A stretch of DNA of 27,402 nucleotides from an uncultured Candidatus Peribacteria bacterium (GTDB lineage: Bacteria; Patescibacteriota; Gracilibacteria; UBA1369; 2-02-FULL-48-14), in contig CAYGAB010000001.1 in NCBI GenBank assembly GCA_964347725.1, forward strand, positions 1 to 27,402. The letters are read 5' to 3'. The position numbers and the translations under genes are program-made. Of the stretch, positions 9,013-27,402 are shown piece after piece (the stretch's first letter is position 1; each line of letters opens with the position of its first letter). A model generated the notes under the pieces. That model did not search any database. It worked only from the letters and a program-made list of their open reading frames with translations, and was not told the origin of the DNA.

Positions 9013-9034
9013 GAGTTGAATTTGAAGTGAGCGC

Positions 9035-9043: not shown

Positions 9044-9065
9044 GCAAAATGAAAAAGCGCGAGCA

Positions 9066-9094
9066 TTGACATAAATACAAATCAATGATAAAAG
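9066..9094 (+). promoter_or_regulatory. Putative sigma70 promoter for the 9121-10543 orphan cluster (TTGACA-17-TAAAAG)
   Basis: Perfect -35 at 9066-9071; imperfect -10 at 9089-9094 with TG at 9086-9087. Confidence 0.4.
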
Positions 9095-9120
9095 CCAGAA
9101 AAATTCACCCCTAGATTCAA

Positions 9121-9510: not shown

Positions 9511-9551
9511 AACAGTTGATAGGCTAACACCTTCAACATTTCAATCCTCCA

Positions 9552-9755
9552 ATGGAAAATGCGAATTCTCGAGAGAAAGCCGCAATGGCCCAGGCTGATA
9601 AGGATTTGGTTCCAGTTCAAGGGGCAACAATTTTAGTCATAGGTTTATTCGTAGCTACTTTTGTGGGATTGGCGTTGAATGAGGACTCAAAGGAAAGAGA
9701 TTTTCGCTCAGAAATCTGGAAACAATTAGTAATAAATTTGACTCGAAAGCCATGA
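9552..9755 (+). CDS. Small single-pass membrane protein
   Basis: 67 aa; ATILVIGLFVATFVGLAL helix; ATGA overlap with the next ORF. Confidence 0.55.
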   Translation: MENANSREKAAMAQADKDLVPVQGATILVIGLFVATFVGLALNEDSKERDFRSEIWKQLVINLTRKP

Positions 9756-10586: not shown

Positions 10587-10615
10587 TTGACTTCCGGTCA
10601 CCACAAGCGTACTGT
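10587..10615 (+). promoter_or_regulatory. trp operon promoter (TTGACT-17-TACTGT)
   Basis: -35 at 10587-10592, exact 17-nt spacer, -10 at 10610-10615 embedded in the operator. Confidence 0.75.
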
Positions 10616-10626
10616 TCGATCAGTAC
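10609..10626. promoter_or_regulatory. TrpR operator (GTACT-N8-AGTAC)
   Basis: GTACTGTTCGATCAGTAC is a near-perfect 18-bp palindrome with the same half-sites and 8-nt spacing as enterobacterial TrpR operators; directly upstream of trpR. Confidence 0.85.
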
Positions 10627-10643: not shown

Positions 10644-10904
10644 ATGAATCAGCAGCACTTGAAAGAATTGGGCGGACTCTTGGTTGGATTGAACACCAGA
10701 GAAGAAGCGCTCGCCATGCTCAAAGATTTACTCACGGATTCTGAACTGGAATCGGTGGCGGAGCGGGTGCAGATTCTCAAGCTTCTGAGCCAAGGAATGC
10801 CCCACCGCAAGATCAGTGAAACGCTGGGAGTCAGCATTTCAAAAGTGACGCGCGGGTCCCATTGGCTACAGGCCAACCCTGCCATTGCCAGTAAAATCGC
10901 TTAA
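10644..10904 (+). CDS. trpR: Trp repressor (TrpR family)
   Basis: DLLTDSELESVAERV...GMPHRKISETLGVSISKVTRGS aligns with E. coli TrpR, including the T44/R54/R84 equivalents. ATG at 10644. Confidence 0.9.
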   Translation: MNQQHLKELGGLLVGLNTREEALAMLKDLLTDSELESVAERVQILKLLSQGMPHRKISETLGVSISKVTRGSHWLQANPAIASKIA

Positions 10905-10919
10905 TTTTTTTTACCTCAC

Positions 10920-12281
10920 ATGTACCGATCAACCAATACGTCCGTCACCCCCAAGTTCAAAAAGTTTCCGCTGGACGAACGTCTCACATTGCCAGTGTTG
11001 TTTGAACAGCTCACGGCCGATCAGCCAGAAGCATTTTTGTTTGAAAGTGCCGACAATGTGGGCGGGAAAGGCCGCTATTCTTATCTGGGTTTTGACCCTG
11101 CCAAGCGTTTTGTGTTTGAAGCGGGAGCCAAGGAGAATCCGCTGGAAATCTTGCGCCACTTTTGCCAAGAAATAGAATTCCACAAGAGTCCGGAACTGCC
11201 GCCTTTTCAGGGTGGATTCGTGGGCTATTTCAGTTATGAAGTGGGCCGACATTTTGAAGACCTGAATTTGCCCTTGGACGGAGCCAAAATTCCGGAAGGG
11301 ATTTTTTTCTTGCCTCAACAAATGGTCGCCATAGACCACAATCTCAAGGAACTATTTTTGATCGCCACCACACAAGAAGCGTTGGAAAGATTGGAGGCAA
11401 AATTCCGAAACGTGGACTTGTCGCTCAAAAAAATAAAAGCGAGTGATGAGCTCGATCGGTCAGATGAATCGGCAGCGCACGAAGACGAAGAAGCACGGTT
11501 GTTAGAAGGCATTGCCATGGCTCAAGAACGAATCAAAGCTGGAGAGATTTTTCAGGTGGTGCTGAGCCGAGGGTTCCAAAGAAAAACCAATTTAAGTCCA
11601 CTGGAGTTGTACGCTCGTTTGCGTTTGGCCTCCCCCTCGCCCTACATGTTTTTTCTGAAATTTGCCGATTTTTGCATTGCCGGCGCTTCTCCAGAAACCC
11701 AGGTGAAGATTCAAGATCGGCAGGTCATGGTGAGGCCCATTGCGGGAACTCGTCGTCGAGGTAGAACTCCGCTGGAAGATCTGGAGCTGGCTGAAGAACT
11801 GAGTCAAGACCCAAAAGAATTGGCCGAACACCAAATGTTGGTGGACTTGGCTCGCAACGACGTGGGCCGAGTGGCCAAACCCGGAACCGTGAGAGTCAGT
11901 CAGCACAAGGACATTCAAAAATTTAGCCACGTCATGCACATGGTTTCAGAAGTGCGAGGAGAACAATCTGAAGACAAAGATCTCTTTGATGTATTTCAAG
12001 CCAGTTTTCCGGCGGGAACTTTGTCTGGCGCACCCAAAGTGAGGGCCATGAAAATCATTGCCGAATTGGAAGCCAAACCACGAGACATTTATGGAGGTGC
12101 GGTGGGCTACTTCGGTCTGGACGGAAACATGGACTTGGCCATCGCCATCCGCACCATGCTCATCAAAGACGGAACCGTGACTTTCCGAACGGGAGCTGGA
12201 ATTGTGCACGACTCTCAGCCGAATTTGGAACACAAAGAGTGCCTCAACAAAGCGCAAGGAATTTTAACCGCTCTCCAATGA
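10920..12281 (+). CDS. trpE: Anthranilate synthase component I
   Basis: LFESA and SPSPYMF (Trp-feedback motifs), GEIFQVVLS, RPIAGT, EHQMLVDLARND, FPAGTLSGAPK, GAGIV. Confidence 0.95.
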   Translation: MYRSTNTSVTPKFKKFPLDERLTLPVLFEQLTADQPEAFLFESADNVGGKGRYSYLGFDPAKRFVFEAGAKENPLEILRHFCQEIEFHKSPELPPFQGGFVGYFSYEVGRHFEDLNLPLDGAKIPEGIFFLPQQMVAIDHNLKELFLIATTQEALERLEAKFRNVDLSLKKIKASDELDRSDESAAHEDEEARLLEGIAMAQERIKAGEIFQVVLSRGFQRKTNLSPLELYARLRLASPSPYMFFLKFADFCIAGASPETQVKIQDRQVMVRPIAGTRRRGRTPLEDLELAEELSQDPKELAEHQMLVDLARNDVGRVAKPGTVRVSQHKDIQKFSHVMHMVSEVRGEQSEDKDLFDVFQASFPAGTLSGAPKVRAMKIIAELEAKPRDIYGGAVGYFGLDGNMDLAIAIRTMLIKDGTVTFRTGAGIVHDSQPNLEHKECLNKAQGILTALQ

Positions 12282-13783
12282 TCCAGCCACTGAAGACCCT
12301 CATCATCGACAACTTTGATTCTTTCACCTACAACCTAGTCCAGCTTTGTGCGGAGCTGGGCGGCAATCCAGAAGTCAGGCGCAACAAGGCCATCACTTTG
12401 AAAGAAATTGAAGCTGGCAACTACACCCACATCATTTTGTCCCCCGGCCCCGGCACCCCAGAAAACCCGGAAGATTTTGGAGTGTGTGCGGAGGTGATTC
12501 AGTCGGGGTCATGCCTCGTTCCCGTTTTGGGAGTTTGCCTTGGACACCAAGGAATCATCGCAGGTTTGGGAGGGAAAATCCTTCGAGCGCCCGTCCCCAT
12601 GCACGGAAAATCCAGCCGCATTCGAGTCGATTCCACTCACCCACTTTTTTCTGGATTGGGCGAAGAGCTGGAAGTCATGCGTTACCATTCTCTCATCGGC
12701 GAGCGAGCAAGTTTGCCAGAGGATTTAGACGTGATCGCCGAAACGGAGGACGGCTTGGTCATGGCGGTGAGCAGCAAAACTCGGCCTTTGTACGGAGTGC
12801 AGTTTCACCCAGAAAGTGTGGGCACGCCGGACGGACGGAAAATCCTGGAGAATTTCTTGAACGTGAATACCGAACAACTCTTGAGGAACATGGCTCAGCG
12901 TGGCGAAAGCGCCGAAGAGTTGAGTCTATTCTTGAAGGAGTTCAAATCAAAATCGGTGCCCTTTCCTATTGAAGCGGAAGAGTCGAAGGAAGTGATGGAC
13001 ATCTGTGGAACGGGAGGTTCTGGCTTGGCTCGTATGAACCTCTCGACGACGGTGGCTTTTGTTTTGGCGGCAGGCGGAGTGAAGGTGGCCAAACACGGAA
13101 ATAAAGCGGGGTCCGGTCGCTGCGGAAGTTTTGATCTTTTGGAAGCTTTGGGAGTTCGAACGGAGCTTAGTCCTCCAACCTTGCGCCGTTCACTCGAGCA
13201 ATTCGATCTGGTGTTTTTATTTGCGCCAGCCTTCCACCCGAGCATGAAGCAATTTGCAGAAATTCGAAAAAAAATAGCGCACCGCACGATTTTCAATCTG
13301 CTGGGACCCTTGCTCAATCCAGCCAATCCGGGATTTCAGTTGATCGGAACCACCGATGCCAAGACGGCGGAAACGCTCATGGCTGTTTTGCAAAAATCAA
13401 CCGAGAAAACTGCGATGGTGCTGCACAACGAAAGCGGTCTGGACGAAGCCATTGTGCACGGCCCGACTCAAATTCTTGAACTCAAAGACGGACAAATCAG
13501 CCGATGGGTTTTAGACCCAAAATCACTTGGACTTGGACACCCTCAAGCCCCTGAAATCGACTGGAAAAAGGCAAGCCCAGTGGACACGAATGTCCAGCTC
13601 TTTGACGACTTGCTCCACAAAAAAACGCCCGGACCTTTGATGGATCAACTGCTCCTCAATGCGGCGCTCGCCTTCAAATTGCGTGGCCGAGTGGCCAGCC
13701 TGGAAGACGGGGTGACATTGGCAAGAAATCTCATTCAAAGCGGCGCTGCTTTCCAAACTTTTCTAAACCACCAATCTTTATGA
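12278..13783 (+). CDS. trpG-trpD: Fused anthranilate synthase component II (GATase) and anthranilate phosphoribosyltransferase
   Basis: [31 protein letters not shown]; then [32 protein letters not shown]. Start at ATG 12278 (ATGA overlap with trpE). Confidence 0.93.
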
Positions 13784-15603
13784 ACGCATTTTACCAAGCC
13801 ATTCACGGCAAAGATCAGATTTCCATCATTGCGGAAATCAAAAAAGCCTCCCCCAGCCACGGGCCTTTTGGCCGTCACGCCGAACTGGATTTGATTCGCG
13901 CTTACGAATCGGCCGGAGCCAGTGCCATTTCCGTGGTGACAGAAGCACCTCGTTTTCAAGGGAGCATGGACTTGCTCAGGCGCGTGGTTCAAGCCACTTC
14001 ATTGCCAGTCATTCGCAAGGATTTTCTGACGCAAACTCAAGACATAGATGAAACGGCAGAGGCCGGTGCGTCGGCGGTTTTGCTCATCGCTCATTTGCTC
14101 AGTGTTCAGGAATTGGGGGCCATGATTCGCCACGCCCTCAAAAAAAATCTCATGCCATTGGTGGAATTGCACGACCAAGCCGATGTGGAAAAAATGAAAT
14201 CGCTCGGGCAAATTCCTGGGGTGGTTTTGGGCATCAACAATCGCGATTTGCAGACCTTGAAAACGGACGTGGACCACGCCCTTTCTTTGCTCGCCGAACT
14301 AGATCCTTTTTATCCCGTGGTGGCGGAAAGTGCTTTTGCGGAGGCCTCTCAACTGGAACCCTACTTTGGAAAAGTGGACGCCGCTTTGGTGGGCACCGCT
14401 TTTTTAACGGCGGAAGATCCTCAGGCCAAAGTGACATCTTTTGTCCACGCCGGAAACAAGGCCTACTTTGGGAATTACGGCGGACAATTCGTGAACGAAA
14501 TGTTGGTGCCCGTGCTCAAAGAAGTGGAGGAAGCTTTTGAACGATTTTGCGCCGATTCAACTCAGCAAGCCGAACTCGCCGATCTGCTCAAAAACTTTGC
14601 TGGTCGAGAAACACCCCTCACCCACGCGCGCAATCTTTCGAAGGAATTGGGCTTTCAGCTCTATCTAAAGCGCGAGGACTTATTGCACGGCGGAGCCCAC
14701 AAAACCAACAACGCGCTGGGGCAGGTTTTGCTGGCCAAGTTCATGGGCAAGAAAGAAATCATTGCGGAAACGGGAGCGGGACAGCATGGAGTGGCGACGG
14801 CCTTGGCCGGAGCCATGATGGGTTTGCCCGTCAAAATCTTCATGGGATCCGTGGACATTGAACGGCAGCAGCCCAACGCCCTCCGCATGAAATTGTTTGG
14901 CGCAGAACTCATTCCAGTAGAAACGGGATCCAAAACCCTCAAAGACGCGATCAATGAAGCCCTGCGCTATTACGTGGCGCACAACCAAGAAGTCTATTAC
15001 GTTTTTGGCACGGCGGCGGGACCTCATCCCTTTCCACGTTTGGTGAGCCACTTTCAATCGGTGATCGGCAAAGAAGCTCGTGCGCAAATTTTGGAGCGAA
15101 CCGGAAAACTCCCCAATAAAATTGTGGCCTGCGTGGGGGGTGGAAGCAACGCCATCGGCATTTTTTCCGCTTTTTTGAAGGACGAAAATGTTGAGCTGAT
15201 CGGCGTGGAGCCTGCGTTGGGCGCACCTCTCCAAAATGGAAGTCCCGGCATTGTGCACGGAGCCCTTTCCTATCTCATGCAAGACGAACACGGCCAGGTC
15301 ACAGAAAGCCACAGTTGCGCCGCTGGCCTGGACTACCCCGGCGTTGGCCCAGAACACAGCTTTCTCAAAGACCAAGGCCGAGCCAAGTACCTCTCCATCA
15401 CAGACGCAGAAGCCCTGCACGCGCTCCAAGTCCTTTGCCAAAAAGAAGGCATTTTGCCAGCGCTGGAATCGTCCCACGCTTTGGCTCAAGCTCTTAAATT
15501 CAAAGGGCAATTGGGCTCAGAGGACATCGTGATCGTTAATTTGTCTGGCCGTGGAGACAAAGACCTGGCCCAAGTGAACGAACTCCTAACCCAAATCCAA
15601 TGA
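13780..15603 (+). CDS. trpC-trpB: Fused indole-3-glycerol-phosphate synthase and tryptophan synthase beta chain
   Basis: [25 protein letters not shown], then in frame [24 protein letters not shown] (PLP lysine), [37 protein letters not shown]. No stop or TrpF sequence between the two domains. Confidence 0.93.
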
Positions 15604-16367
15604 AAGACCGCTACCAAGAAACTTTTGCCAGTCTGCGCCGAGAAAACAAAAAAGCCTTCTGTGCTTTTGCCGTTTTGGGCGATCCAAATCCAGAGGAATG
15701 TCTTCAGCGAATCCAAGAAATGTTGAAGGCCAAGCCCGATATTTTAGAACTCGGCATTCCCTTTTCGGATCCAGTGGCGGATGGCCCTGTCATTCAAGCC
15801 GCCGACGAACGAGCCTTAAAATCTGGAACCACGCCAAAATCCGCTCTGCAACTCTTGTCAAAAATTCGTCTCCAAACAGAGGTGCCGATTGGACTTTTGG
15901 TCTACGCCAACACGGTTTTTAAATACGGAATTGACCGATTTTACTCTGATGCCAAAAAGGCCGGCGCGGACAGCATTTTGATCGCCGATGTGCCTTTGGA
16001 AGAAATCCAGCCCTTCGCCGATTCGGCCAAAACTCACCAAATCCATCAAGTCATGATGTTGAGTGAAAACACCTCCACCGAACGCCTCAAACAACTCGAA
16101 CGCGTGGGCAGTGGATTTTTTTACGTGGTTTCTCAGATGGGCGTGACCGGGGACCGCCAAGGCCTCAATCCAAAAGTGGCGGAGCTTCTGGCACGATTCA
16201 AGTCCAGCACCAAAATCCCACTCCTTCTGGGATTTGGCATTTCGACGTCCGACCACATCCGAACTCTGAAAAACGCTCCCGTGGACGGATTGATCGTGGG
16301 AAGTGCGCTCGTCAAAACGCCAACCCATGAGCTGTTTGAAACCTTAAACGAACTCATCCATGCTTGA
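15600..16367 (+). CDS. trpA: Tryptophan synthase alpha chain
   Basis: [19 protein letters not shown] (catalytic Glu/Asp), GVTG, GFGIS, IVGSALV. Confidence 0.97.
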
Positions 16368-16851
16368 CCAAGACGCCACCGTTTTCACTTATTGTTACTC
16401 TCGCACGGTCTTTGCGATTTTAAAACAAGCCCAGCAAAAGGGACACAAAATTCAGGTTTTGCTTCCAGAAACTCGACCCAACTTCACGGGCCGACTCATG
16501 GCCAAAGCCCTTTTGGAAGCCGAAATTCCCGTCACTTTTTTCCCCGATATCCTGTCCTACGAACAGATGAAACGCGCCGATTTATTCCTCTTTGGCGTGG
16601 ATTTTATGGCTCCAGATGGGCGAATCCTCAACAAGGCTGGAACCGCCACCTTGGTTCAACTGGCGCGCCAGCTCAAAGTCCCCACCTTTGCCTGCACCTC
16701 TCCCAAAAAAACCGTCTCCCTTGAAGCTTTTCTTGCCGCGCAAAAACTCACCCGCCCTTCCTCCGAACTTTGGCCAGACGCTCCCGACTCGCCAAACCTC
16801 ACCTTGCTTTCCCCCGCTTACGATTTGGTGGACGGAGTGGACATTTGGTAA
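16360..16851 (+). CDS. IF-2B / MtnA / ribose-1,5-bisphosphate-isomerase family protein, C-terminal Rossmann domain only
   Basis: TVFTYCYS, ETRP..TGR, IPVTFFPD, LFGVD, GRILNKAGT, VPTF match the family core; 163 aa with the N-terminal helical domain absent; 8-nt overlap (ATGCTTGA) with trpA. Confidence 0.85.
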   Translation: MLDQDATVFTYCYSRTVFAILKQAQQKGHKIQVLLPETRPNFTGRLMAKALLEAEIPVTFFPDILSYEQMKRADLFLFGVDFMAPDGRILNKAGTATLVQLARQLKVPTFACTSPKKTVSLEAFLAAQKLTRPSSELWPDAPDSPNLTLLSPAYDLVDGVDIW

Positions 16852-16873
16852 CGACTGGCGCGGCCTTCACCCA

Positions 16874-16900
16874 AATCAAATGCAATGGATGTATTTGATT
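16874..16900. terminator. Inverted repeat after the trp operon (terminator or protein-binding site)
   Basis: AATCAAATGCA-atgga-TGTATTTGATT: 11-bp arms with one G:U-compatible mismatch, 22 nt after the last operon stop. AT-rich with no clean U-tract. Confidence 0.4.
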
Positions 16901-16922
16901 GTATGTGATTACATGCGATTCC

Positions 16923-16954
16923 GCTTGACTAAACCACAATTCAGTTTATCATTT
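16923..16954 (+). promoter_or_regulatory. Junction motif copy 1 / sigma70 promoter (TTGACT-16-TATCAT)
   Basis: gcTTGACTaaaccacaattcagttTATCATtt; 25/32 identical to 17705-17736. Confidence 0.65.
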
Positions 16955-16982
16955 CCGCTAAATCCCGAACCTACATTCAAGC

Positions 16983-17714
16983 GTGAAAAAGCAACATGTT
17001 GATTTAAGTCACCTCACAGGCCCTCGGTCAACTGAATTATTGTTGGATTGGCAGGAAATGGGCCGTGAGCCAAATCGCAGGGAAAATTATTCGAACGCAT
17101 CTGGTCTCCCAGAAGAATTGGTCATGGCCCTGTCTACTCTGCAGCAGGCGATTCAAGCACAAATACAGTTTCCACACAGTATGTCTAATTTGATGAGGCT
17201 CACTTCTGCGGCAGTGAAGTCCAGCAGTGCTACTTTCGTCAGAACCTCCACGTGGACGATCAAGGGCTTGGTAAACCCTAAAAAAAGAAGAGCTGGACGA
17301 GATTTATATACAGAAGCCGTGGTGGCTTGTTCCATTGCCTTGGGAAGATTGTCTTTAGGGAGTGACGAGCTGAATTCATTTGGGGTGGCACAAAGGGAGC
17401 TCACGCACAGTCGAGGCCTAGAGGAATTGAAAAGCAAATGGGCGGCAGAAGGGATAACAACCGTTGACATCAACGGGCTGGACAGGAGCAAGGCTTTGAA
17501 ACATCTGGGAGACAGGAACAGAAGGCTTTCCCAAAAGGATTTGGCACTGTTGCGTGCACCTGGAGATTTGAGAAGTTTAGAACGTCGTGCAGAGGCTGAA
17601 GCCAGCACGTGGTCTCCAGAAGTTCTCAGCCCAATCGCCCGGAGCAGCTTTCTGACCGCTGTGGACCACGCTGCGGAACGGAGGCAGCGAAAAGGGCTCA
17701 AAAGGCTTGACTAA
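16983..17714 (+). CDS. Hypothetical protein, paralog of the downstream gene (shared C-terminal motif)
   Basis: 243 aa, GTG start; EASTWSPEVLSPIARSSFLT at 17598-17657. Confidence 0.7.
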   Translation: MKKQHVDLSHLTGPRSTELLLDWQEMGREPNRRENYSNASGLPEELVMALSTLQQAIQAQIQFPHSMSNLMRLTSAAVKSSSATFVRTSTWTIKGLVNPKKRRAGRDLYTEAVVACSIALGRLSLGSDELNSFGVAQRELTHSRGLEELKSKWAAEGITTVDINGLDRSKALKHLGDRNRRLSQKDLALLRAPGDLRSLERRAEAEASTWSPEVLSPIARSSFLTAVDHAAERRQRKGLKRLD

Positions 17715-17736
17715 GCCAATATTTCGGTTATTATTT
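17705..17736 (+). promoter_or_regulatory. Junction motif copy 2 / sigma70 promoter (TTGACT-16-TATTAT) overlapping the upstream stop codon
   Basis: gcTTGACTaagccaatatttcggtTATTATtt; the TAA stop (17712-17714) lies at the end of the -35 box. Confidence 0.65.
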
Positions 17737-17760
17737 TTTCCAAAATTTGAGATTAAATCC

Positions 17761-18708
17761 ATGGAAATCGACAGAGCAAATGTGCCGAAAGAAATAATGA
17801 ATACCGGCCCCCTTGTGGACTGGTGGAAGGAAAAGATGAACATGGGTTTTCAAGTGCCCGAGCTTGAAATTGAAGAGGCGTCACCTCCAGATTCTGTGGC
17901 AAGTGTTCTGAGCGATACCAGAGAAGCTATCGTAAGAAGAATAGAATCAGGTAGACCGTGGAGTATCGGTAGCGTGCATGGGATTGTTCGTCAATCAATA
18001 GCCAGAGAACCGGCAGGCATGGTGGACCCTAAGGTAGATGCAATCCTATCTAGATGGGGTGTTGAAACATTGATGATCGCTGATCCAAGCAGAGTGTGTG
18101 CCATCGCCCTCACTAGACAAGCTTTGGTGGGAGGAGCACCTGGGTTTACTCCTGAAGTTAATCTTACGGAAGCAGAGCAGCAGGTGACGGAGGCGCAGCA
18201 GGCATATGAAGCATTGCTGTCAAAGAATAAGGAGATCTGGGCCGATATCGAGAGCCAAGATAGAGAATTAAGAGCGAAAAAACCCACGGCAGAAAGGCTT
18301 AGAGCTCTATTGGAGAAACTGGTGGGTGCGGCTTTCCCAGGTCGGAGTCTGAACTTTGCGGCGATTCAAACTGAAATAGCTCGAGCAGAACAAGGTGCTG
18401 GAGCAAAAACTTTGTTGGCCCACTCCAACATTATGACAACCCACAACGAGCTAGCAATTGCAGAAGAAGAGATTAGGAGCTTGACTGCTGCGATTGAGCG
18501 AAATGAGAGCTTTTTCAATAATTTGGAATATGACGATCGTAGTGCGTACGGAAACCAATTGAGGGCAGAGGGATTGGTGCTTGAGGCAAGAACATGGACT
18601 CAAGACTTTCTAGAGCCAATTGCGCAAAGCAGCTTTATGACAGGGCTTGCAATCAAAGCTATGAAAAATGCGGCAAAGTTAAAACGGGGAAAGATCAGTC
18701 TGAATTAA
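17761..18708 (+). CDS. Hypothetical coiled-coil-rich protein, paralog of the upstream gene
   Basis: ATG at 17761, downstream of the promoter, preferred over TTG 17707; heptad-like helices; EARTWTQDFLEPIAQSSFMT at 18583-18642. Confidence 0.75.
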   Translation: MEIDRANVPKEIMNTGPLVDWWKEKMNMGFQVPELEIEEASPPDSVASVLSDTREAIVRRIESGRPWSIGSVHGIVRQSIAREPAGMVDPKVDAILSRWGVETLMIADPSRVCAIALTRQALVGGAPGFTPEVNLTEAEQQVTEAQQAYEALLSKNKEIWADIESQDRELRAKKPTAERLRALLEKLVGAAFPGRSLNFAAIQTEIARAEQGAGAKTLLAHSNIMTTHNELAIAEEEIRSLTAAIERNESFFNNLEYDDRSAYGNQLRAEGLVLEARTWTQDFLEPIAQSSFMTGLAIKAMKNAAKLKRGKISLN

Positions 18709-18727
18709 GCCACCAATAAGGTCATTG
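18698..18727 (+). repeat. Junction motif copy 3 (degenerate)
   Basis: 19/30 identical to 17704-17733, with TAAGCCA again centred on the stop codon (18706-18708). Confidence 0.45.
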
Positions 18728-18746
18728 AATACTCAATATTCCTCAA

Positions 18747-19964: not shown

Positions 19965-20002
19965 AGTGCATAGGAATTTCCTGCTCACCGGCCAATTTAA
20001 AA

Positions 20003-20030
20003 TTGCCCCATCCCATTTTTCTGCTAGAAT
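20003..20030 (+). promoter_or_regulatory. aro operon promoter (TTGCCC-16-TAGAAT with extended -10 TGn)
   Basis: -35 at 20003-20008, TG at 20022-20023, TAGAAT at 20025-20030; 21 nt above the leader ATG. Confidence 0.7.
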
Positions 20031-20051
20031 AAACGCACTCACACAAGTTTT

Positions 20052-20126
20052 ATGCAATTGCACACCTGGTACGGATTCTTTGGATTCTTTTACAACTTCG
20101 CTCCGGCGAGGCTAAGGGTTGTGTAG
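20052..20126 (+). CDS. Aromatic-amino-acid attenuator leader peptide MQLHTWYGFFGFFYNFAPARLRVV (24 aa; not in the ORF track)
   Basis: ATG CAA TTG CAC ACC TGG TAC GGA TTC TTT GGA TTC TTT TAC AAC TTC ... GTG TAG; 8 of codons 6-16 are aromatic (1 Trp, 2 Tyr, 5 Phe). Confidence 0.9.
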   Translation: MQLHTWYGFFGFFYNFAPARLRVV

Positions 20127-20157
20127 AAAATTTTTACTTCAACACCCAAAAGGCCTC
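20092..20157 (+). promoter_or_regulatory. Attenuator alternative structures: 1:2 (pause) and 2:3 (antiterminator) hairpins
   Basis: 1:2 is TTCGC-tccg-GCGAG (20097-20110) extended by ACAAC/GTTGT (20092-96/20118-22). 2:3 is GAGGC/GCCTC (20108-12/20153-57) plus GGGTTG/CAAC-A-CC and GTAGA/TTTAC. Confidence 0.8.
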
Positions 20158-20175
20158 CCCAGCGAGGTCTTTTTT
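20148..20175 (+). terminator. Attenuator terminator (3:4)
   Basis: AAAAGGCCTC-cccagc-GAGGTCTTTT stem followed by a T-tract (20170-20175); 29 nt before the aroA ATG. Confidence 0.88.
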
Positions 20176-20204
20176 GTTCTCAAGGCTTAATTTTACCCCC
20201 GATC

Positions 20205-21500
20205 ATGCGACTGCAAGTCTCCCCCATTTCCAAACTGAACGGCAGCGTCCGAATTCCCGGATCCAAGTCTCAAAGTGTGCGAGCTTTTTTGGTGGCGACT
20301 TTGGCAAAAGGGCGATCAGAAATTCACGCTCTGCCATCTGGAGAAGACGTGAAAGCAGCGGAAGCCGTGGCGCAAAGTTTGGGTGCTCAAGTGGACACGC
20401 TGGACTGCCATGGACATTGCGTGGCGTTGACGAGCCAGGGCCTGCCTTTGTCCATTTCTCCTGAAATGTGGACAGCCAATTCCGGCATCACGACCCGATT
20501 TGTTTTGCCAATTTTAGGGCTCAGTGCTCAGCCAGATCAAAGTGTGAAGGTGGACTGTGGATCTCAAATGCGTCAACGGCTCATCCAAAGTTACCTGCAA
20601 AACCTCCAAGATCTGGGCCTCAAAATTCAAGAAAGCGAGGGTGGTTGGCCTTTGCAAGTTTCCGGCCAACTCCAAGGCGGATCGGTCACGGTGGAAGGCC
20701 TCACCTCTCAATACCTGTCCGGGCTGTTGCTCTCAGCATGTTGCGCTCGACAAGACACGATTTTGACCGTTCACAATCTGAACGAAAGACCCTACGTGGA
20801 CATGACGCTCAAGTGGTTGAAGGACCAAGGCATTCGTTTTGAACACGAGCGAACCGCAACGCGAGATCGCTTCACGGTCTTTGCGGGGCAAAAATACTCT
20901 CCGATTGACTTCACCGTTCCGGGCGATTTTTCCTCAGCCTCTACCCTCTTGGCGGCAGGCGCTCTCTTCAAAGGCGAACTGCTCTTGCAAGGCTTGGACA
21001 TGGACGATCCTCAGGGCGATCGGCGACTCGTCGAGATTCTAAAAGAGATGGGAGTGGACATCCAAGTGGACAGTGCCGGCCTGAAAATCCGCGGTGGCAA
21101 ACCACTCAAAGGGCTAAGGGTGGACGCGAATGACATTCCAGACATGCTCCCCACTTTGGCGGTGCTCGGAACTCAAGTGGAAGGCGGAATAGAAATTGTG
21201 AACGTGCCTCAAGCTCGTTTTAAAGAGACCGACAGAATCCATTCCATGGCAGAAGGTTTGCGAAAAATGGGCGCTCAGGTGGAAGAAAAAACAGATGGAC
21301 TGACGGTGTATCCGGGCCCTCTCCAGGGGGCTGAGCTGCAGGGCTATGAAGATCACCGAACGATCATGGCACTCGCACTCGCAGGACTCTTGGCGGAGGG
21401 CAGCACAAAAATAGACACCGCCGAGGGCCTCAACAAAACCTATCCGGAATTCACGGAACACATGAACGCCCTGGGTGCAAAACTTTCTCTAATCGATTAA
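20205..21500 (+). CDS. aroA: EPSP synthase (3-phosphoshikimate 1-carboxyvinyltransferase)
   Basis: PGSKS, NSGITTRF, TSQYLSGLL, VPGDFSSA, DIPDMLP, KETDRI, DHRTIMA, KTYPEF. Confidence 0.96.
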   Translation: MRLQVSPISKLNGSVRIPGSKSQSVRAFLVATLAKGRSEIHALPSGEDVKAAEAVAQSLGAQVDTLDCHGHCVALTSQGLPLSISPEMWTANSGITTRFVLPILGLSAQPDQSVKVDCGSQMRQRLIQSYLQNLQDLGLKIQESEGGWPLQVSGQLQGGSVTVEGLTSQYLSGLLLSACCARQDTILTVHNLNERPYVDMTLKWLKDQGIRFEHERTATRDRFTVFAGQKYSPIDFTVPGDFSSASTLLAAGALFKGELLLQGLDMDDPQGDRRLVEILKEMGVDIQVDSAGLKIRGGKPLKGLRVDANDIPDMLPTLAVLGTQVEGGIEIVNVPQARFKETDRIHSMAEGLRKMGAQVEEKTDGLTVYPGPLQGAELQGYEDHRTIMALALAGLLAEGSTKIDTAEGLNKTYPEFTEHMNALGAKLSLID

Positions 21501-21511
21501 ACTCACTTCAA

Positions 21512-22039
21512 ATGAAAAAGCATCTCATCCTCATTGGATTCAAACACAGCGGAAAAAGCACGCTTGGCCGAGAGCTCGGCGCCAAGCTTGGTAGAAATTT
21601 TGTGGACTTGGACGAGGCGATCCAGGCCGCACACTTGGAGCAAACGGGCGAAGATCTCAGTTGCCGAGAAATTTTGCGTGGTCACGGAGAAGAACACTTC
21701 CGCGAATTGGAACACGAAGTCCTCAAGACGGCACTGGCCAATCCCAATCCACTCATTTTGGCTTTGGGCGGAGGTACTCCCATGATGCAAGAAAACCAAG
21801 ATCTAATTCGACCTCACCAAGTGGTTCACATTTCCGCTCCAAAAAGCGTGATTTTTGAACGGATCATGATCCACGGCAAACCCGCATTTTTCTCGGCGGA
21901 AGTGGACGCTTTTGACCACTTTCAAGAACTTTGGGCCAAACGAGCACCCATCTTTGAATCTTTGGCGGACGTGACCATTCAGAACAAAGGCGCGCTGGAA
22001 CCCGTCGTTAATGAAATCATCGAACACTTTCAAACATGA
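21512..22039 (+). CDS. aroK: Shikimate kinase
   Basis: LIGFKHSGKSTLG P-loop, FVDLD, GEEHFRELE, ALGGGT. Confidence 0.92.
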   Translation: MKKHLILIGFKHSGKSTLGRELGAKLGRNFVDLDEAIQAAHLEQTGEDLSCREILRGHGEEHFRELEHEVLKTALANPNPLILALGGGTPMMQENQDLIRPHQVVHISAPKSVIFERIMIHGKPAFFSAEVDAFDHFQELWAKRAPIFESLADVTIQNKGALEPVVNEIIEHFQT

Positions 22040-23217
22040 AAAAAATCCTTCTCATCCACGGACCAAATTTGAATCGTCTTGGCCGGCGCGACCCAAAACA
22101 TTACGGCACGATCACTCTGCCAGAGTTGGAAGCCTGTGTGCGGGAAGCGGCTCAAAAAAAAGGCTACGAATTGGAGGCTTTTCAGTCCAATCACGAAGGC
22201 GCTTTGATCGATTGGATTCAAGAAAAATCCGATTCCGCGGCTGGAATTTTGATCAACCCTGGGGCGCTCACTCACAGCAGTTACGCCTTGCACGATGCGC
22301 TTTTGGACACGGGTTTGCCTTGCGTGGAATTGCATTTGTCGGACCTTTCTCAGCGTGAAGATTGGCGGCAAAAATCTGTGACGGCTCCAGCTTGCATGGC
22401 CGTGAGACAAGGCAAAGGCAAGGACTCTTATTTGGAAGGGCTGGAACTTTTGACGACCCCGCTCAACGCCGTGATTGGCTTTCCGCTCGGGCATTCCCAA
22501 AGTCCCGCTTTCCATTCGGCGCAGTACCGTGAGCGCGGAATCAATGCCGTGATGCTGGCCTGGGCCAATCCGGATGTGAGGGTTTTGGTGCAAGTGATTC
22601 GCGACTATAAAATTGGTCTGACAGCAGTGACGCTTCCTCACAAAGAAAGCATTTTGCCACTTTTGGATCACGTGGACGAACTCGCAAAACGCATTGGCGC
22701 CGTGAACACGGTCTTGCAAATTCATGGAAAACTCCACGGTTTCAACACGGACTACCTCGGTCTGAAAACCGCCTTGAGCACCGTGGACTTGAAAGGGAAA
22801 ACGGTTTTACTGCTGGGAGCCGGTGGAGCGGCTCGTCCCCTCGCCGCCTTGGTTTCAGATTCAGGCGGACACTTGTTTTGCTTGAACCGCAGCCATGAAA
22901 AAGCCCAAGCTTTGGTGGAGGAATTTGGTGGCAGGGCCATCACGGAATCGGACTTGGACGGACTTTCTCCCAACATCATCGTCAACACCACGCCGCTCGG
23001 CATGCATCCAAAAGAGGACGAAACTCCTCTGGATTCTCGGCATTTTAAGCCGGGCCAAAGCGTTTTGGACATTGTCTACAATCCGGAAGAAACTCGATTT
23101 TTACGTGAAGCCAAGGTCGCCGGCGCCTTCACGATTTCCGGAAAAATCATGTTTGAAGCTCAAGCTCTGGAGCAAATTCAGCTCTGGGAAAACAACGTTT
23201 TATCGACTAACTCTTAA
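22036..23217 (+). CDS. aroQ-aroE: Fused type II 3-dehydroquinate dehydratase and shikimate dehydrogenase
   Basis: HGPNLNRLGRRDPKHYG, SNHEG, INPGALTH, VELHLS; then GFPLGHSQSP, VTLPHK, AVNT, NTD, GAGGAA, NTTPLGM, DIVYNP. Confidence 0.93.
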   Translation: MKKILLIHGPNLNRLGRRDPKHYGTITLPELEACVREAAQKKGYELEAFQSNHEGALIDWIQEKSDSAAGILINPGALTHSSYALHDALLDTGLPCVELHLSDLSQREDWRQKSVTAPACMAVRQGKGKDSYLEGLELLTTPLNAVIGFPLGHSQSPAFHSAQYRERGINAVMLAWANPDVRVLVQVIRDYKIGLTAVTLPHKESILPLLDHVDELAKRIGAVNTVLQIHGKLHGFNTDYLGLKTALSTVDLKGKTVLLLGAGGAARPLAALVSDSGGHLFCLNRSHEKAQALVEEFGGRAITESDLDGLSPNIIVNTTPLGMHPKEDETPLDSRHFKPGQSVLDIVYNPEETRFLREAKVAGAFTISGKIMFEAQALEQIQLWENNVLSTNS

Positions 23218-23220
23218 TCC

Positions 23221-24261
23221 ATGCGTTTCACCGTCACCAAAAAATTACCTCGCGCGGAGGACATCATTCAAAAGCATCCCCTCTCCGACCGAGCTTGGGA
23301 ACAAATCGACCAAGACAAAAAAGAACTCCAAGCGATTCTGTCTGGCCGAGATGACAGAAAAATCGTGATCGTCGGACCTTGTTCCGCCTGGCCTTTTGAA
23401 GGCGTTTTGGACTACGCCGCTCGACTCAAAGAACTCAGCAAAAAAGTGGATCACAAACTCAAAATCGTGATGCGCTGCTACATCCAAAAACCACGCACCA
23501 CCAAAGGCTGGTTGGGGCCAGTCAATCAACCCGATCCTTACGCCGTTCCCGACATTGAAGCCGGCGCTTATTACGCCCGCAGCCTCATGGTGCAGATCAT
23601 AGAAATGGGTTTGCCGATTGCGGACGAAGCCGTTTTCACCAACAATGCCAAAGGATTTGTGGAACTTTTATCTTGGTTGGCGATTGGCGCTCGCAGCACA
23701 GAAGATCAAGAACATCGCATTTTTGCCTCCGCCGTGGACTGCCCCGTTGGCATGAAAAATCCAACCAGCGGAATGATTGAAATTGGAGCGAACAGCGTGG
23801 TGGTGGCGCAACACCCGCACACCGCCGTTTTTGATGGAATGCAGGTGGAAACTCAGGGAAATCCTTACGCTCATTTGGTCTTGCGTGGAGGTCTGCATAG
23901 GTCCAACTACCACGTGGAAGACTTGTACGAAGCCAAAAAATGTCTGGAAGCCGCTCAAGTTAAAAACCCGGCTGTGATAGTGGACGCCAGCCACGACAAC
24001 TGCAAAATCAACGGTGCCAAAAACGCAGTTCAACAGATGCACGTCGTGAGAGAAATCATGTCCACTTTGGCGCTTTATCCAGAGCTCAATTCTCTCGTCA
24101 AAGGCTTCATGTTGGAAAGTTTCATCAAACGTGGCAGTCAAAAAATCGAATCCATGAAGCCTGAAGAAGTGGACATGGGCGGACTTTCCATCACAGACCC
24201 CTGCCTCGGTTGGGAAGACACCGAGCAACTGCTCCTAGAAATGGCCAACACGCTCGTATAA
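23221..24261 (+). CDS. DAHP synthase, class I-alpha (AroF/G/H family)
   Basis: GPCS, KPRTT, IGARS, PVGMKN, LVLRGG, IVDASHDN, MLES, SITDPCLGW. Effector specificity cannot be read from the sequence by eye. Confidence 0.93.
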   Translation: MRFTVTKKLPRAEDIIQKHPLSDRAWEQIDQDKKELQAILSGRDDRKIVIVGPCSAWPFEGVLDYAARLKELSKKVDHKLKIVMRCYIQKPRTTKGWLGPVNQPDPYAVPDIEAGAYYARSLMVQIIEMGLPIADEAVFTNNAKGFVELLSWLAIGARSTEDQEHRIFASAVDCPVGMKNPTSGMIEIGANSVVVAQHPHTAVFDGMQVETQGNPYAHLVLRGGLHRSNYHVEDLYEAKKCLEAAQVKNPAVIVDASHDNCKINGAKNAVQQMHVVREIMSTLALYPELNSLVKGFMLESFIKRGSQKIESMKPEEVDMGGLSITDPCLGWEDTEQLLLEMANTLV

Positions 24262-24272
24262 AAACTCTTTTC

Positions 24273-25310
24273 ATGCAAGAAAATTTTTCAATTCAAATCC
24301 CGGCCTCGCCACGCCAAACCCCCCTTTATTTTGGAGAAGCTTTGTTGACGCACTTGCCGGAACTTCTCAAAAAACACGCTCCGGCTCACCGCTACGCTTT
24401 GATCACGGACAGCACGGTGGAAACTTTGCATGGGAAAGCTTTGGCTCAGCAATTAAAATCCGCCGGACTCGATTTGACTTTGCTCTCTTTCCCGGCCGGA
24501 GAATCCAGCAAAAATGAAGCCACGAAACAGCAGCTCGACCACGAACTTTTGAAGCGCGGATTTGGCCGAGACACGGTCTTGTTGGCCTTGGGTGGTGGCG
24601 TGGTGGGAGACATGGTTGGCTTTGTAGCGGCCACGTATTTGCGTGGCATTCCTTTTGTCCAAATTCCGACCACGGTTTTGGCCATGGTGGACAGTTCCAT
24701 CGGAGGAAAAGTGGGCGTGGACACGCCTTTTGGGAAAAATTTGATTGGCGCTTTTTGGCACCCAAATTTGATTGTGGCGGACACGGACACGCTCTCCACT
24801 TTGTCGGAAGAACAAAAGCAAAACGGATTTTTTGAAGTGCTGAAAATGGCCCTGTGTTTGGACATGGAAGCCAACTCCATTGAACGCGCCATGCAACTCA
24901 AAGCCAAAATCGTGTCCGCGGACGAACGCGAGTCGGCCCAAAGAGCCGTCTTGAATTTTGGTCACACGGTGGGCCACGCTTTGGAATTGTTGAGCGATTA
25001 TCGTCTCTTGCACGGATTCGCGGTGGGACTTGGAATGTGGGTGGAAGCCCGCATTTCTTGTTTTCTGGGGCACTTGTCTCCAGCCGATTTCAAAGAAGTG
25101 GAGGCACGATTGATCGCTCACGGAACGGACCTTTCTGTCTTGCAACAATACGATCCAAATGCCGTGTGGGACGCCATGCAATCCGACAAAAAAAACCGAG
25201 AAGGAAAGGTGAAAATGGTGCTGCTCGCTGGCCTCGGCAAAGTGGTGGACGACGGCGGATTCACCCATCCCGTTTCCAAAGAAGATTTCTTGTCCAGCTT
25301 CAAAATCTAA
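24273..25310 (+). CDS. aroB: 3-dehydroquinate synthase
   Basis: GESSK, ALGGGVVGDMVGF, PTTVLAMVDSSIGGK, KNLIGAF, LNFGHTVGHA, LLHG, DKK. ATG at 24273. Confidence 0.95.
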   Translation: MQENFSIQIPASPRQTPLYFGEALLTHLPELLKKHAPAHRYALITDSTVETLHGKALAQQLKSAGLDLTLLSFPAGESSKNEATKQQLDHELLKRGFGRDTVLLALGGGVVGDMVGFVAATYLRGIPFVQIPTTVLAMVDSSIGGKVGVDTPFGKNLIGAFWHPNLIVADTDTLSTLSEEQKQNGFFEVLKMALCLDMEANSIERAMQLKAKIVSADERESAQRAVLNFGHTVGHALELLSDYRLLHGFAVGLGMWVEARISCFLGHLSPADFKEVEARLIAHGTDLSVLQQYDPNAVWDAMQSDKKNREGKVKMVLLAGLGKVVDDGGFTHPVSKEDFLSSFKI

Positions 25311-25320
25311 TCCCATTTCT

Positions 25321-26025
25321 ATGTCTGAATTGCCCAAAAAAATCATCTACGCCGGAAACGAAGGCTCTTTTTCCTGGGCCGCCGCTCGACTGATTGAAGG
25401 AATGGATTTGCCTCTTGAACCTTCCCTCAGCCCGGGACGAGTGATCGAACGGCTCCACGCCGGTGAGGCCTCGCACGGGATGATTCCCTTCCGAAATCCG
25501 GACGTGGGAGAAGGCACCATTCTTTCTACGGAAGAAGCCTTTGCACAACTCGGCCTGCCTTTGCCAGAAGCAAAACTCAAAGGCGAAGCTTGGTGGGAAT
25601 CCTTGCAAGCCATGCATCCCGATTGGATTTTGAGCCACCGCATTCCCCTGCCCGTGCGATTCCACGTCTTGGCAAAACCGGGACTCAAGCCCGAGGACAT
25701 CACCAGAATCATTGCTTTCACGATTGCTTCCGCTCAGTGTGGCGCAGGGTTTGAACGCGTCATTGGCCGGCCTTTCGACTTGATCACGGACTACAGCGAC
25801 ACCGCCAAAGCCGCCGCCGATCTCCAGAAATTGTTGCAAGACCCAAGCTTGGTGGACCGCGACCCAGAAGTGAAACTCCTCTTGCCCGTGGAACACACGG
25901 GAGTTCTCGGCAACGAATGGTGCGCCGTCATGTACGGTTTGGACATCGTTTACCGTGACGTTCAAAATCAACCCGAAGGCAATGTCACCACCTTTGCTCT
26001 ACTCCGTAACCCTTGGCACAAATGA
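25321..26025 (+). CDS. Divergent prephenate/arogenate dehydratase, catalytic domain only (no ACT domain)
   Basis: IYAGNEGSFS, HGMIPFRN, SAQC, DTAKAA, YGLDIV.RDVQNQ..NVTTF parallel the PDT motifs (LGPEGTFS, PIENS, LAQC, STAEAA, YGL..L...IED...NTTRF); 234 aa. Confidence 0.75.
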   Translation: MSELPKKIIYAGNEGSFSWAAARLIEGMDLPLEPSLSPGRVIERLHAGEASHGMIPFRNPDVGEGTILSTEEAFAQLGLPLPEAKLKGEAWWESLQAMHPDWILSHRIPLPVRFHVLAKPGLKPEDITRIIAFTIASAQCGAGFERVIGRPFDLITDYSDTAKAAADLQKLLQDPSLVDRDPEVKLLLPVEHTGVLGNEWCAVMYGLDIVYRDVQNQPEGNVTTFALLRNPWHK

Positions 26026-26990
26026 AATTTGGAATCCTAGGCCATGGCCGATTTGGAAAACTCTGGGCGGAGTGCCTCCGGCCTTTTGGAGACGTTTTGG
26101 TGCACGACCCAAACCAAGAAAAAACGGACTCACTCACGGACACTCTGAACGTAGATTTTCTTTTTCTCGCCGTGCCCATGTCCAGCTTTGAGCAAGTCTG
26201 CAAAGACATCGCGTCGCACATTCCAGCGCACACGGTCGTGGTGGATTTGTGTTCCGTGAAAGTGCATCCAGCGGAGGTCATGCTCAAAGAGTTCTCAAGC
26301 GATCAGCCACTCATTGCTACCCACCCTTTGTTTGGCCCAGATTCCGTGAAAAGCCTCGGCTTGGCAGGGCGAAAAATAGTGGTTTGTCCTTTGCGAGTTG
26401 AGCCAGTTCACACACAAAAACTCCTGAACATTTTCGAGAAAATGGAGCTCGTGGTCATGCTTTCCACACCCCAAGAGCACGACGAACAAATGGCCAAGTC
26501 TCAAGCTTTGGTCCACTTCATTGGCAGGGGTTTGGCCTCCCTCCACCTCTCTGAACAAGCCATGTCCACGCCCGACTACCAAGCTCTCTTGAAAATCGAC
26601 AGCGTCGTCAACAACGACACCTGGGAACTCTTCTACAACATGCAGCAGCTCAATCCATTCACTGCCCAAATTCGCCACAGCTTCCTTCAAAAACTCCAAG
26701 ACCTCAATGACGAAATTGACCAACCGTCTTGCCTAGACGAGTACCGCCAAAACATCGAATTCATCGACCAAAGCATTGTCCATTTATTGGGCCAGCGCAT
26801 GAAGTGGGCGCACAACATCGGACGCATCAAAAAACAAGAAGGCCAGGCCGTTCGAGACGAAGCCCGCGAACAAAAACTCAAAGCCCTGCACCGTGAACTC
26901 GCTGAAAAAGAAGGCGTGCCTCACGAACTCGTGGAAGAACTCTTTGAACAAGTCATGGCCGCCTCACGTTCTCTCCAATCCAAACTTTAA
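26022..26990 (+). CDS. tyrA: TyrA-family (prephenate/arogenate) dehydrogenase with C-terminal AroQ-class chorismate mutase
   Basis: GILGHGRFG Rossmann motif, DLCSVK, ATHPLFGP, EHDEQMA; C-terminal LDEYRQNIEFIDQSIVHLLGQR..IGRIKK..VRDEARE chorismate mutase motif. ATG at 26022 (ATGA overlap). Confidence 0.9.
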   Translation: MKFGILGHGRFGKLWAECLRPFGDVLVHDPNQEKTDSLTDTLNVDFLFLAVPMSSFEQVCKDIASHIPAHTVVVDLCSVKVHPAEVMLKEFSSDQPLIATHPLFGPDSVKSLGLAGRKIVVCPLRVEPVHTQKLLNIFEKMELVVMLSTPQEHDEQMAKSQALVHFIGRGLASLHLSEQAMSTPDYQALLKIDSVVNNDTWELFYNMQQLNPFTAQIRHSFLQKLQDLNDEIDQPSCLDEYRQNIEFIDQSIVHLLGQRMKWAHNIGRIKKQEGQAVRDEAREQKLKALHRELAEKEGVPHELVEELFEQVMAASRSLQSKL

Positions 26991-27000
26991 TCAAGCAAAA

Positions 27001-27402
27001 ATGCCTGCGTCCCCAAAAACATTTCAAGCCTCGGCCACGGTGCAAATCAATTCTTTGGCTCAGCAAAAAAAAGCCCGCGGCGAACGCATTTACAACCTCA
27101 GTGCCGGCGAGCCCATTTTGAATTCCGGGCATTTTTACAAAGCGACCATGAGCCGAATTTTGGACGAAGGCAAAACCCTTTACCCGCCCACGGCCGGCCT
27201 AGACGCTCTCCGCAAAACCGCCGCCGATTGGATGAATCGCCACCATCAAACTGACTACAACGCCGCCAACACCATGGTCACTCCCGGTGGGAAATTCGCC
27301 CTCCATTTGGCCATGCAATCGCTCTTGAATCCCGGCGACGAAGTGCTCCTTCCCTCTCCGCATTATTTGTCCTACCCTCCCATGTTGGAACTCGTCGGAG
27401 CC
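27001..27402 (+). CDS. PLP-dependent class I aminotransferase (subgroup I-beta AspAT-like), 3'-truncated by the window edge; not in the ORF track
   Basis: Manual translation: MPASPKTFQASATVQINSLAQQKKARGERIYNLSAGEP...YPPTAGLDALRK...VTPGGKFAL...NPGDEVLLPSPHYLSYP; open to the window end. Confidence 0.9.
   Translation, partial: MPASPKTFQASATVQINSLAQQKKARGERIYNLSAGEPILNSGHFYKATMSRILDEGKTLYPPTAGLDALRKTAADWMNRHHQTDYNAANTMVTPGGKFALHLAMQSLLNPGDEVLLPSPHYLSYPPMLELVGA

Follow-up and report, generated by a model that had tools for sequence, protein, structure and literature searches.

Can a bacterium of the candidate phyla radiation (CPR) make, and control the making of, its own aromatic amino acids? The question is raised by contig CAYGAB010000001.1 (here C1) of an uncultured Candidatus Peribacteria bacterium (assembly GCA_964347725.1), which we analysed over its entire length of 27,402 nt and refer to as the window. 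Behind a block of housekeeping genes it carries a tryptophan (trp) operon and a shikimate/phenylalanine/tyrosine (aro) operon, which an earlier note, made from the letters alone, had described as a nearly complete and regulated supercluster acquired long ago by a lineage of general auxotrophs. We consider it very probable that the window comes, as one real stretch, from the chromosome of a Peribacteria/Peregrinibacteria bacterium, and that its two aromatic amino-acid operons are native and long resident. The view of CPR bacteria as uniform amino-acid auxotrophs is an over-generalisation that the findings below correct, which is relevant both to models of CPR host dependence and to the design of media for their cultivation. 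The one odd feature of the locus is a missing gene, trpF.

Host, contiguity and gene content of the window

The host is a CPR bacterium of the Peribacteria/Peregrinibacteria lineage, because FtsZ identity, the gene order shared from def to the family 4 glycosyltransferase gene (GT4) and a genome of 1.09 Mb (G000; 198 contigs, 88.75% complete, 1.98% contamination) all agree in placing it there, as the earlier note had supposed from gene style and pilin type. The best 80 FtsZ loci among 185,579 species genomes are 63-80% identical to the window protein (75-78% for Ca. Peribacteria), and all but three belong to metagenome-assembled genomes (MAGs) labelled Peribacteria, Peregrinibacteria, Gracilibacteria or 'Patescibacteria group'. 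The exceptions are one MAG labelled plain 'bacterium' and two labelled Nitrospirota/Nitrospirae, whose matches look like mis-binned contigs. Against these best-80 relatives FtsA reaches 86% identity, KhpA 81% and the type IV secretion system (T4SS)-type pilin 83%, and the genes of the def-femAB-ftsZ-ftsA-exo-pilin-khpA-S16-dciA-GT4 block are each present in 34-80 of the 80 loci. Some genomes of the same-class sample read TGA inside genes, which fits the GTDB class Gracilibacteria, the class that we infer for the host. As a separate observation, CPR-type genes occur at four loci (L022, L054, L200 and L204) in MAGs labelled otherwise, among them Nitrospirota/Nitrospirae with FtsZ 65-66% identical and a Gammaproteobacteria MAG with AroA nested among Magasanikbacteria; these bins are probably mislabelled or contaminated.

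Synteny with relatives ends after GT4 at position 9072, where two orphan open reading frames (ORFs) sit at the junction, and the G+C fraction, 0.46 around the junction, climbs to 0.52 across the operons (0.515 in trp and 0.519 in aro, with a genome mean of 0.474). Both features could be expected had assembly or binning joined a CPR housekeeping segment to the aromatic segment of another organism. Such a chimera is, however, scarcely credible given that the junctions are crossed in three assemblies with zero mismatches and at an even depth of 13-17. The Logan assembly of run X1 has one contig over 7000-11381 and another over 14272-22701, both with 0 differences, and the ENA contig ERZ27247837 (87,086 bp) is 100% identical to the window from 6360 to 27402. 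Furthermore, a related strain in run X3, a pond sample from another study, contains approximately 92%-identical pieces of both sides, namely GT4 with an orphan ORF, a spacer ORF, aroA and aroQE, while the same aro operon is found in same-family CPR genomes, two of which (G013 and G022) also have aro and trp operons adjacent. The continuity between housekeeping and aromatic segments on which the earlier note had made its case depend is therefore real, the chimera is rejected on the evidence of the three assemblies, and the window contains neither an assembly break nor a foreign signature.

Pfam and NCBIfam profile searches of the window find TrpE, TrpG, TrpD, TrpC, TrpB and TrpA, all of them present, with every trp and aro gene on the plus strand (Table 1) and a gap of 3.35 kb between the operons by profile annotation, in agreement with the 3.3 kb noted earlier. 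All seven enzymes of the shikimate pathway are present, six in the window and chorismate synthase (AroC) outside it, and the phenylalanine and tyrosine branches are represented by matches to CM_2, PDT, PDH_N and Aminotran_1_2. The earlier note had called the catalytic motifs mostly intact. This held for the motifs sampled except in AroA and the type II dehydroquinase, where the patterns used gave no match; these two domains align instead at full length to solved structures in the PDB or to Pfam profiles.

The note had also suggested that aroC might lie beyond the right edge, and it does. The gene is found on another contig of the same genome (C6), adjoining that contig's end, and the last 49 residues of the aminotransferase that the window truncates are encoded at the same end of C6 (17681-17535), on the opposite strand from aroC. 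The ENA contig joins the two: beyond the window it completes the aminotransferase (388 aa) and runs on into aroC (382 aa, minus strand) and then into C6 in reverse at 99.85% identity, so that aroC is convergent and lies 0.75 kb past the edge, with a gap of 612 bp between C1 and C6. In the close relatives G014 and G016 aroC is likewise convergent and directly behind the aminotransferase. The shikimate pathway is therefore complete, and the aro operon together with aroC would provide the seven shikimate steps, chorismate mutase, prephenate dehydratase, prephenate dehydrogenase and an aminotransferase.

Several of the genes are fused. The 607-aa TrpC-TrpB product, which is the same in the ENA and Logan assemblies, is matched both by TIGR00263 and by NF010375, the model for bifunctional indole-3-glycerol phosphate synthase (IGPS)/TrpB. 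It shares the TrpC-TrpB architecture of NF010375, matching over residues 9-599, and a Thermodesulfobacteriota MAG also gives a contiguous match. However, the window protein scores 504 bits where the model cut-off is 1386, so that the fusion is taken to have arisen independently. In the operons closest to it (G108, G244 and G041) trpC and trpB are separate genes. In the closest relatives aroQ and aroE, fused in the window, are two separate overlapping genes (for example 8658-9095 and 7891-8661 of locus L100).

Descent and distribution of the two operons

The order aroA-aroK-aroQ-aroE-DAHPS-aroB-pheA-tyrA/CM-aminotransferase (DAHPS, 3-deoxy-D-arabino-heptulosonate 7-phosphate (DAHP) synthase; CM, chorismate mutase) is common to the same-family genomes G014, G024 and G016 at 42-75% protein identity. 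Their DAHPS is 73-74% identical to that of the window, close to the 77% of FtsZ. A similar aro cluster occurs in G025, of the same order and another family, and the adjacent trp and aro operons of G013 and G022 have other layouts. In a quick IQ-TREE search AroA of the window groups with 7 rows from its own family, and these belong to a clade of 22 rows (100% support) that is CPR throughout save for three MAGs with doubtful labels. Sequence comparison indicates that the aro operon was inherited vertically within family and order.

The trp operon appears to have had a less simple history. A quick TrpB tree of 113 rows separates the host's class into three clades; the window, the Peribacteria MAG G041 and G108 form a group (98% support) nested in a clade of ten rows made up of CPR sequences alone (99%), and TrpB of the same-family genomes G013, G016 and G022 falls in a different CPR clade. 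From these placements the operon is old within the CPR. In this family it either replaced an earlier operon, coming from another CPR lineage, or survived where relatives lost it; transfer within the CPR and differential loss are both possible.

That the whole supercluster was instead acquired recently from a donor outside the CPR could be argued from this same difference in trp lineage between the window and three same-family genomes, from non-CPR TrpB proteins that reach 57-60% identity to that of the window, and from a G+C content of the operons slightly above that of the genome. We regard this as very improbable. The sequences nearest to AroA and TrpB are all from CPR bacteria, in well-supported clades, and neither tree shows a non-CPR donor of the kind that the earlier note had expected such trees to reveal; the aro operon diverges from its relatives at close to the housekeeping rate (DAHPS 74%, FtsZ 77%); and the tetranucleotide composition lies inside the genome's own range, the distance to the rest of the genome falling at the 83rd percentile of its own 6.5-kb chunks for trp and at the 92nd for aro. 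On the grounds of synteny, trees and tetranucleotide distance we reject a foreign genomic island. Of the earlier proposal of an ancient acquisition, long residence survives, upheld by shared operons, trees and composition, and its framing as an exceptional event does not, since such clusters are common in the class and the same operon recurs in the family.

Of 301 genomes sampled from the class, 142 have chorismate synthase (PF01264) and 81 have TrpA (PF00290). Across the phylum chorismate synthase was found in 32 of 401 sampled genomes, 16 of these 32 belonging to the host's class, so that outside the class the figure is about 4% of Patescibacteria. Among the sampled class genomes the shikimate pathway is thus retained in about half and trpA in about a quarter, with classical repressor and attenuator control and long inheritance. 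Freshwater Gracilibacteria have been reported to encode tryptophan and 'other aromatic' pathways, and their metabolism to cluster with that of free-living bacteria (Chiriac et al., 2022, Microbiome, PMC9166423). That study concerns the same CPR class, but it works with pathway-module maps, and the part of its text covered here does not deal with operon anatomy, regulation, phylogeny or the missing TrpF. For Ca. Peribacter riflensis few amino-acid biosynthesis genes were described (PMC4736985). The aromatic clusters are not a singular acquisition: they are native and regulated, typical of part of this class, and had been reported before.

Control of the two operons

The claim that the clusters are regulated is sustained by a conserved TrpR-type palindrome and by a leader rich in phenylalanine, tyrosine and tryptophan codons that ends in a terminator. 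The palindrome, GTACTG-N6-CAGTAC, is unique in the window (0.04 occurrences expected by chance) and also in the 1.09-Mb genome. It recurs twice in both G041 (locus L112) and G108 (L288), one copy preceding trpR and the other lying between trpR and trpE, and G036 (L108) has one variant copy, GTACTT-N6-CAGTAC, upstream of trpR only. Read as GTACT-N8-AGTAC it matches the half-sites of the enterobacterial TrpR operator. Upstream of the aro operon, 8 of the 24 codons of a putative leader peptide are aromatic, including the stretch W-Y-G-F-F-G-F-F-Y-N-F, and the predicted minimum-energy fold (z = -3.2), a long-range alternative to the terminator, pairs the 3' part of the leader with the terminator arm and so sequesters it. 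Leaders rich in phenylalanine and tyrosine lie 50-130 nt upstream of aroA in 9/10 relatives, and no Rfam family, leader families included, reaches its gathering score in a scan of the window. These comparisons support conservation in relatives of both the predicted TrpR-type operator and the predicted aromatic leader attenuator, each of them a classical device.

According to the model that we favour, TrpE, G, D, C, B and A would be expressed behind an autoregulated TrpR-type repressor acting at a palindromic operator by the promoter, and the aro operon would probably be controlled through a ribosome-sensing leader peptide that has many phenylalanine, tyrosine and tryptophan codons and is followed by a terminator. 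By analogy the TrpR-like repressor and the aro leader may work as they do in E. coli. As there, the palindrome is placed at the promoter, but the repressor scores under the NCBIfam TrpR cut-off; and like the pheL and pheM attenuators of E. coli, the aro leader combines a short ORF rich in aromatic codons, a terminator and an alternative pairing, but this attenuator, predicted from sequence, precedes the operon of the whole common pathway and matches no Rfam leader family. The aromatic supraoperon of B. subtilis (aroFBH-trpEDCFBA-hisC-tyrA-aroE), which uses TRAP and has trpF, offers a further comparison. There too a single strand carries the trp genes in one cluster with tyrA, an aminotransferase gene and genes of the shikimate pathway, whereas here the genes form two separately controlled units, one with a TrpR operator and one with a leader peptide, contain the fusions GD, CB, QE and TyrA-CM and include no trpF.

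Several points weigh against the reading of the two operons as native and working units. The TrpR-like protein reaches 51 bits with TIGR01321, under the cut-off of 67. The prephenate dehydratase (PDT) domain is a weak match whose NCBIfam scores fall far under the cut-offs, and it has no ACT domain, so that allosteric control of this step by phenylalanine is not evident; relatives have the domain at the corresponding place in their clusters, 42-46% identical. The G+C fraction of both operons (0.515 and 0.519) exceeds the genome mean of 0.474. The outgroups of the AroA and TrpB trees came from non-exhaustive peptide-pattern scans, and both trees from quick searches. Finally, the profile of phosphoribosylanthranilate (PRA) isomerase (PRAI/TrpF, PF00697) has no match in the whole of G000, a genome 88.75% complete, in a search whose control was positive in 14/14 genomes.

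The missing TrpF

The earlier note had seen no trpF in the window, and the PF00697 search extends this absence to the genome. PF00697 is also absent from G041 (L112), G108 (L288), G040 (L307), G209 (L309) and G233 (L308), and is not listed for G244 (L289); a query with a TrpF-domain protein found nothing in the four genomes searched (G000, G041, G108 and G244). When the class sample is cross-tabulated, 12 genomes are positive for TrpA and negative for PRAI. Six of these belong to the host's order (G000, G040, G108, G209, G233 and G244), five of them at least 97% complete, and G041 is a seventh TrpF-less, trp-positive case. That trpF has been lost repeatedly while the rest of the operon stayed intact makes this a concrete and testable case of a missing enzyme.

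The operons of the TrpF-less genomes read trpR-E-G-D-C-B-A and have no room for trpF. In sister genomes the gene is in place, either adjoining trpB (G109, G110 and G153) or within TrpD-C-F fusions (G013 and G022). We considered whether trpF had been excised by the event that fused trpC to trpB in the window, and find no support for this, as the nearest operons, where the two genes are still separate, already have no trpF: trpC is directly followed by trpB in G108 and G244, and by a DAHP synthase gene and then trpB in G041. Loss of trpF therefore predates the fusion. The DAHP synthase in the trp operon of G041 (L112:4911-5912) is a second copy, as is one in that of G013 (L102:15112-15912); they lie between trpC (or trpDCF) and trpB, and the G041 copy has a ferredoxin-like regulatory domain (PF18152). 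Their position suggests an entry enzyme dedicated to tryptophan.

With no detectable PRAI/TrpF the tryptophan branch is formally incomplete, and the claim that this lineage makes tryptophan is unproven, as no gene can be assigned to the PRA isomerase step. It is conceivable that the branch does not run from chorismate to tryptophan at all and forms a partial pathway, for example salvage of indole by TrpBA, with the upstream genes serving another purpose or in the course of being lost. Partial trp operons for salvage are known in Chlamydia, and PF00697 is absent from all seven genomes, with the TrpF-domain query negative in four of them. We nevertheless think this unlikely, since at least seven TrpF-less genomes, from three families, have all six other genes intact and 32-70% identical, as would be expected if selection acted on the entire pathway; the operon retains TrpR control; and every step but one is kept, which points to an unrecognised isomerase. 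A bolder reading, which we hold to be somewhat less likely than not, is that G000, G041, G108, G244, G040, G209 and G233 make tryptophan without TrpF, some of them without any HisA-family barrel, by means of such an unrecognised PRA isomerase. In our main reading we presume that the enzymes of the window are active and that tryptophan would be made even with TrpF missing.

Among the gene families compared as possible replacements for TrpF, no single candidate covers all seven genomes. Actinobacteria that lack trpF have PriA, a bifunctional HisA/TrpF, and G000 resembles them in lacking trpF while possessing HisA-family barrels: a HisA-HisF fusion of 479 aa on a 1.9-kb contig (C175), with counterparts in G244, G209 and G233, and a divergent stand-alone HisA-like barrel of 217 aa between ychF and relA/spoT (C38). 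However, these score 58 and 222 bits with TIGR01919, the PriA model, far under its cut-off of 306. HisA/PriA is rejected as a general substitute, since the TrpF-less genomes G108, G041 and G040 have no HisA-family barrel, and the C38 gene is non-specific, with orthologues in the TrpF-positive G013 and G016.

The second family is IF-2B, to which a 163-aa ORF overlapping trpA belongs. It corresponds to the C-terminal Rossmann-like domain of an IF-2B or ribose-1,5-bisphosphate-isomerase-like protein, aligns to residues 143-254 of the structure 3a11 with Cys, ETRP and GxD motifs kept, and is 37% identical to the full-length e2b2 product encoded downstream of trpA in G108 and G244. In those genomes (L288:11830-14746 and G244:C5:12092-14380) trpA is directly followed by an AMP-phosphorylase-like gene and then e2b2, with a cytidine deaminase gene also in G108. 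This deoA-e2b2 synteny suggested that the window ORF was a decaying remnant, a reading that we reject: in an 88%-identical strain (L304:535-1026) the ORF has the same length and the same 8-nt overlap with trpA, and its ratio of nonsynonymous to synonymous substitution (dN/dS) is 0.16, against 0.12 for the neighbouring trpA. These values indicate purifying selection and argue for a maintained and probably functional protein. G000 encodes neither RuBisCO nor AMP phosphorylase, the enzymes with which such an isomerase would have its usual role; RuBisCO is likewise absent from G108 and G244, where the isomerase product would thus be without its usual consumer. As a general substitute for TrpF the IF-2B/e2b2 family is rejected: the TrpF-less genomes G040, G209 and G233 have no PF01008 match, and Trp-negative families of the order commonly do. 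G040, 99% complete in 6 contigs, has no TrpF, HisA or IF-2B family gene.

A barrel enzyme of the operon may itself be bifunctional, TrpC being the sole phosphate-binding barrel besides TrpA common to all seven genomes. For G000 in particular, the trpA-coupled IF-2B C-domain protein, which retains the Cys and Asp that ribose-1,5-bisphosphate isomerase uses in catalysis, would be a further candidate. G000 also has a second, full-length and very divergent IF-2B protein (C34:466-1443; 325 aa, 29% identical to the window ORF), whose gene adjoins a fragment of an ArsB/NhaD-type transporter gene. In G041 the AMP-phosphorylase-like gene (C6:46889-48406) contains three different in-frame stops (TGA, TAG and TAA) and is probably a pseudogene.

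Table 1. Features of the window, with coordinates and the profile matches or motifs that identify them.
Feature	Position	Strand	Evidence and remarks
Housekeeping block	left 9 kb		def, femAB, ftsZ, ftsA, 5'-3' exonuclease, T4SS-type pilin, khpA, rpsP, dciA, GT4 glycosyltransferase
trpR operator-like element	10587-10626	+	promoter-like TTGACT, then 18-bp palindrome GTACTG-N6-CAGTAC at 10609-10626, upstream of trpR
trpR-like repressor	10644-10904	+	86 aa from ATG at 10644; PF01371 2e-17; ENA gene call agrees
trpE, anthranilate synthase component I	10920-12281	+	PF00425 + PF04715; LFES and GGAVGY motifs present
trpG-trpD fusion (amidotransferase + anthranilate phosphoribosyltransferase)	12278-13783	+	PF00117 + PF00591; GVCLG, CGTGGSG and KHGN motifs
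trpC-trpB fusion, 607 aa, without TrpF domain	13780-15603	+	PF00218 residues 3-220; PF00291 residues 275-589
trpA	15600-16367	+	PF00290 8e-79
IF-2B-family ORF, 163 aa	16360-16851	+	PF01008 profile positions 105-263 of 280; overlaps trpA by 8 nt
Three spacer ORFs	17124-19964	+	196, 315 and 405 aa; between trp and aro operons
Putative leader-peptide attenuator of aro operon	20003-20180	+	promoter-like site; leader ORF 20053-20127; hairpin 20148-20173 + T-run
aroA, 5-enolpyruvylshikimate-3-phosphate (EPSP) synthase	20205-21500	+	PF00275 4e-91
aroK, shikimate kinase	21512-22039	+	PF01202; Walker A motif present
aroQ (type II dehydroquinase)-aroE (shikimate dehydrogenase) fusion	22036-23217	+	PF01220 + PF08501 + PF01488; PDB matches over both halves
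DAHP synthase type I-alpha (AroF/G/H type)	23221-24261	+	PF00793; NF009395 346 bits, above cut-off 343
aroB, 3-dehydroquinate synthase	24273-25310	+	PF01761 + PF24621
pheA-like PDT domain	25321-26025	+	PF00800 3e-15, 57 bits
tyrA (prephenate dehydrogenase) + C-terminal AroQ-class chorismate mutase fusion	26022-26990	+	PF02153 + PF01817; TIGR01791 above cut-off
Class I/II aminotransferase, 5' part	27001-27402	+	PF00155; cut by contig end; 388 aa in full

Five orphan ORFs flank the trp operon (9121-10543 and 17124-19964); they match no family, and none of the related genomes examined has a homologue. For the three that form the spacer between the operons, no Pfam match was obtained at E values up to 1 and no counterpart in the relatives' loci; they are present in strain L304 and in run X3, which represent strains 88-92% identical to the host.

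Histidine-pathway genes occur elsewhere in G000 too, with the HisA-HisF fusion at C175:230-1669 (minus strand) and the HisA-like gene at C38:4715-5368 (plus strand). The genome also encodes a second chorismate-binding enzyme (C122:12-1064), 30% identical to TrpE, and a second amidotransferase (C14:888-1460), 49% identical to TrpG; these are probably pabB and pabA, so that chorismate may also feed folate synthesis.

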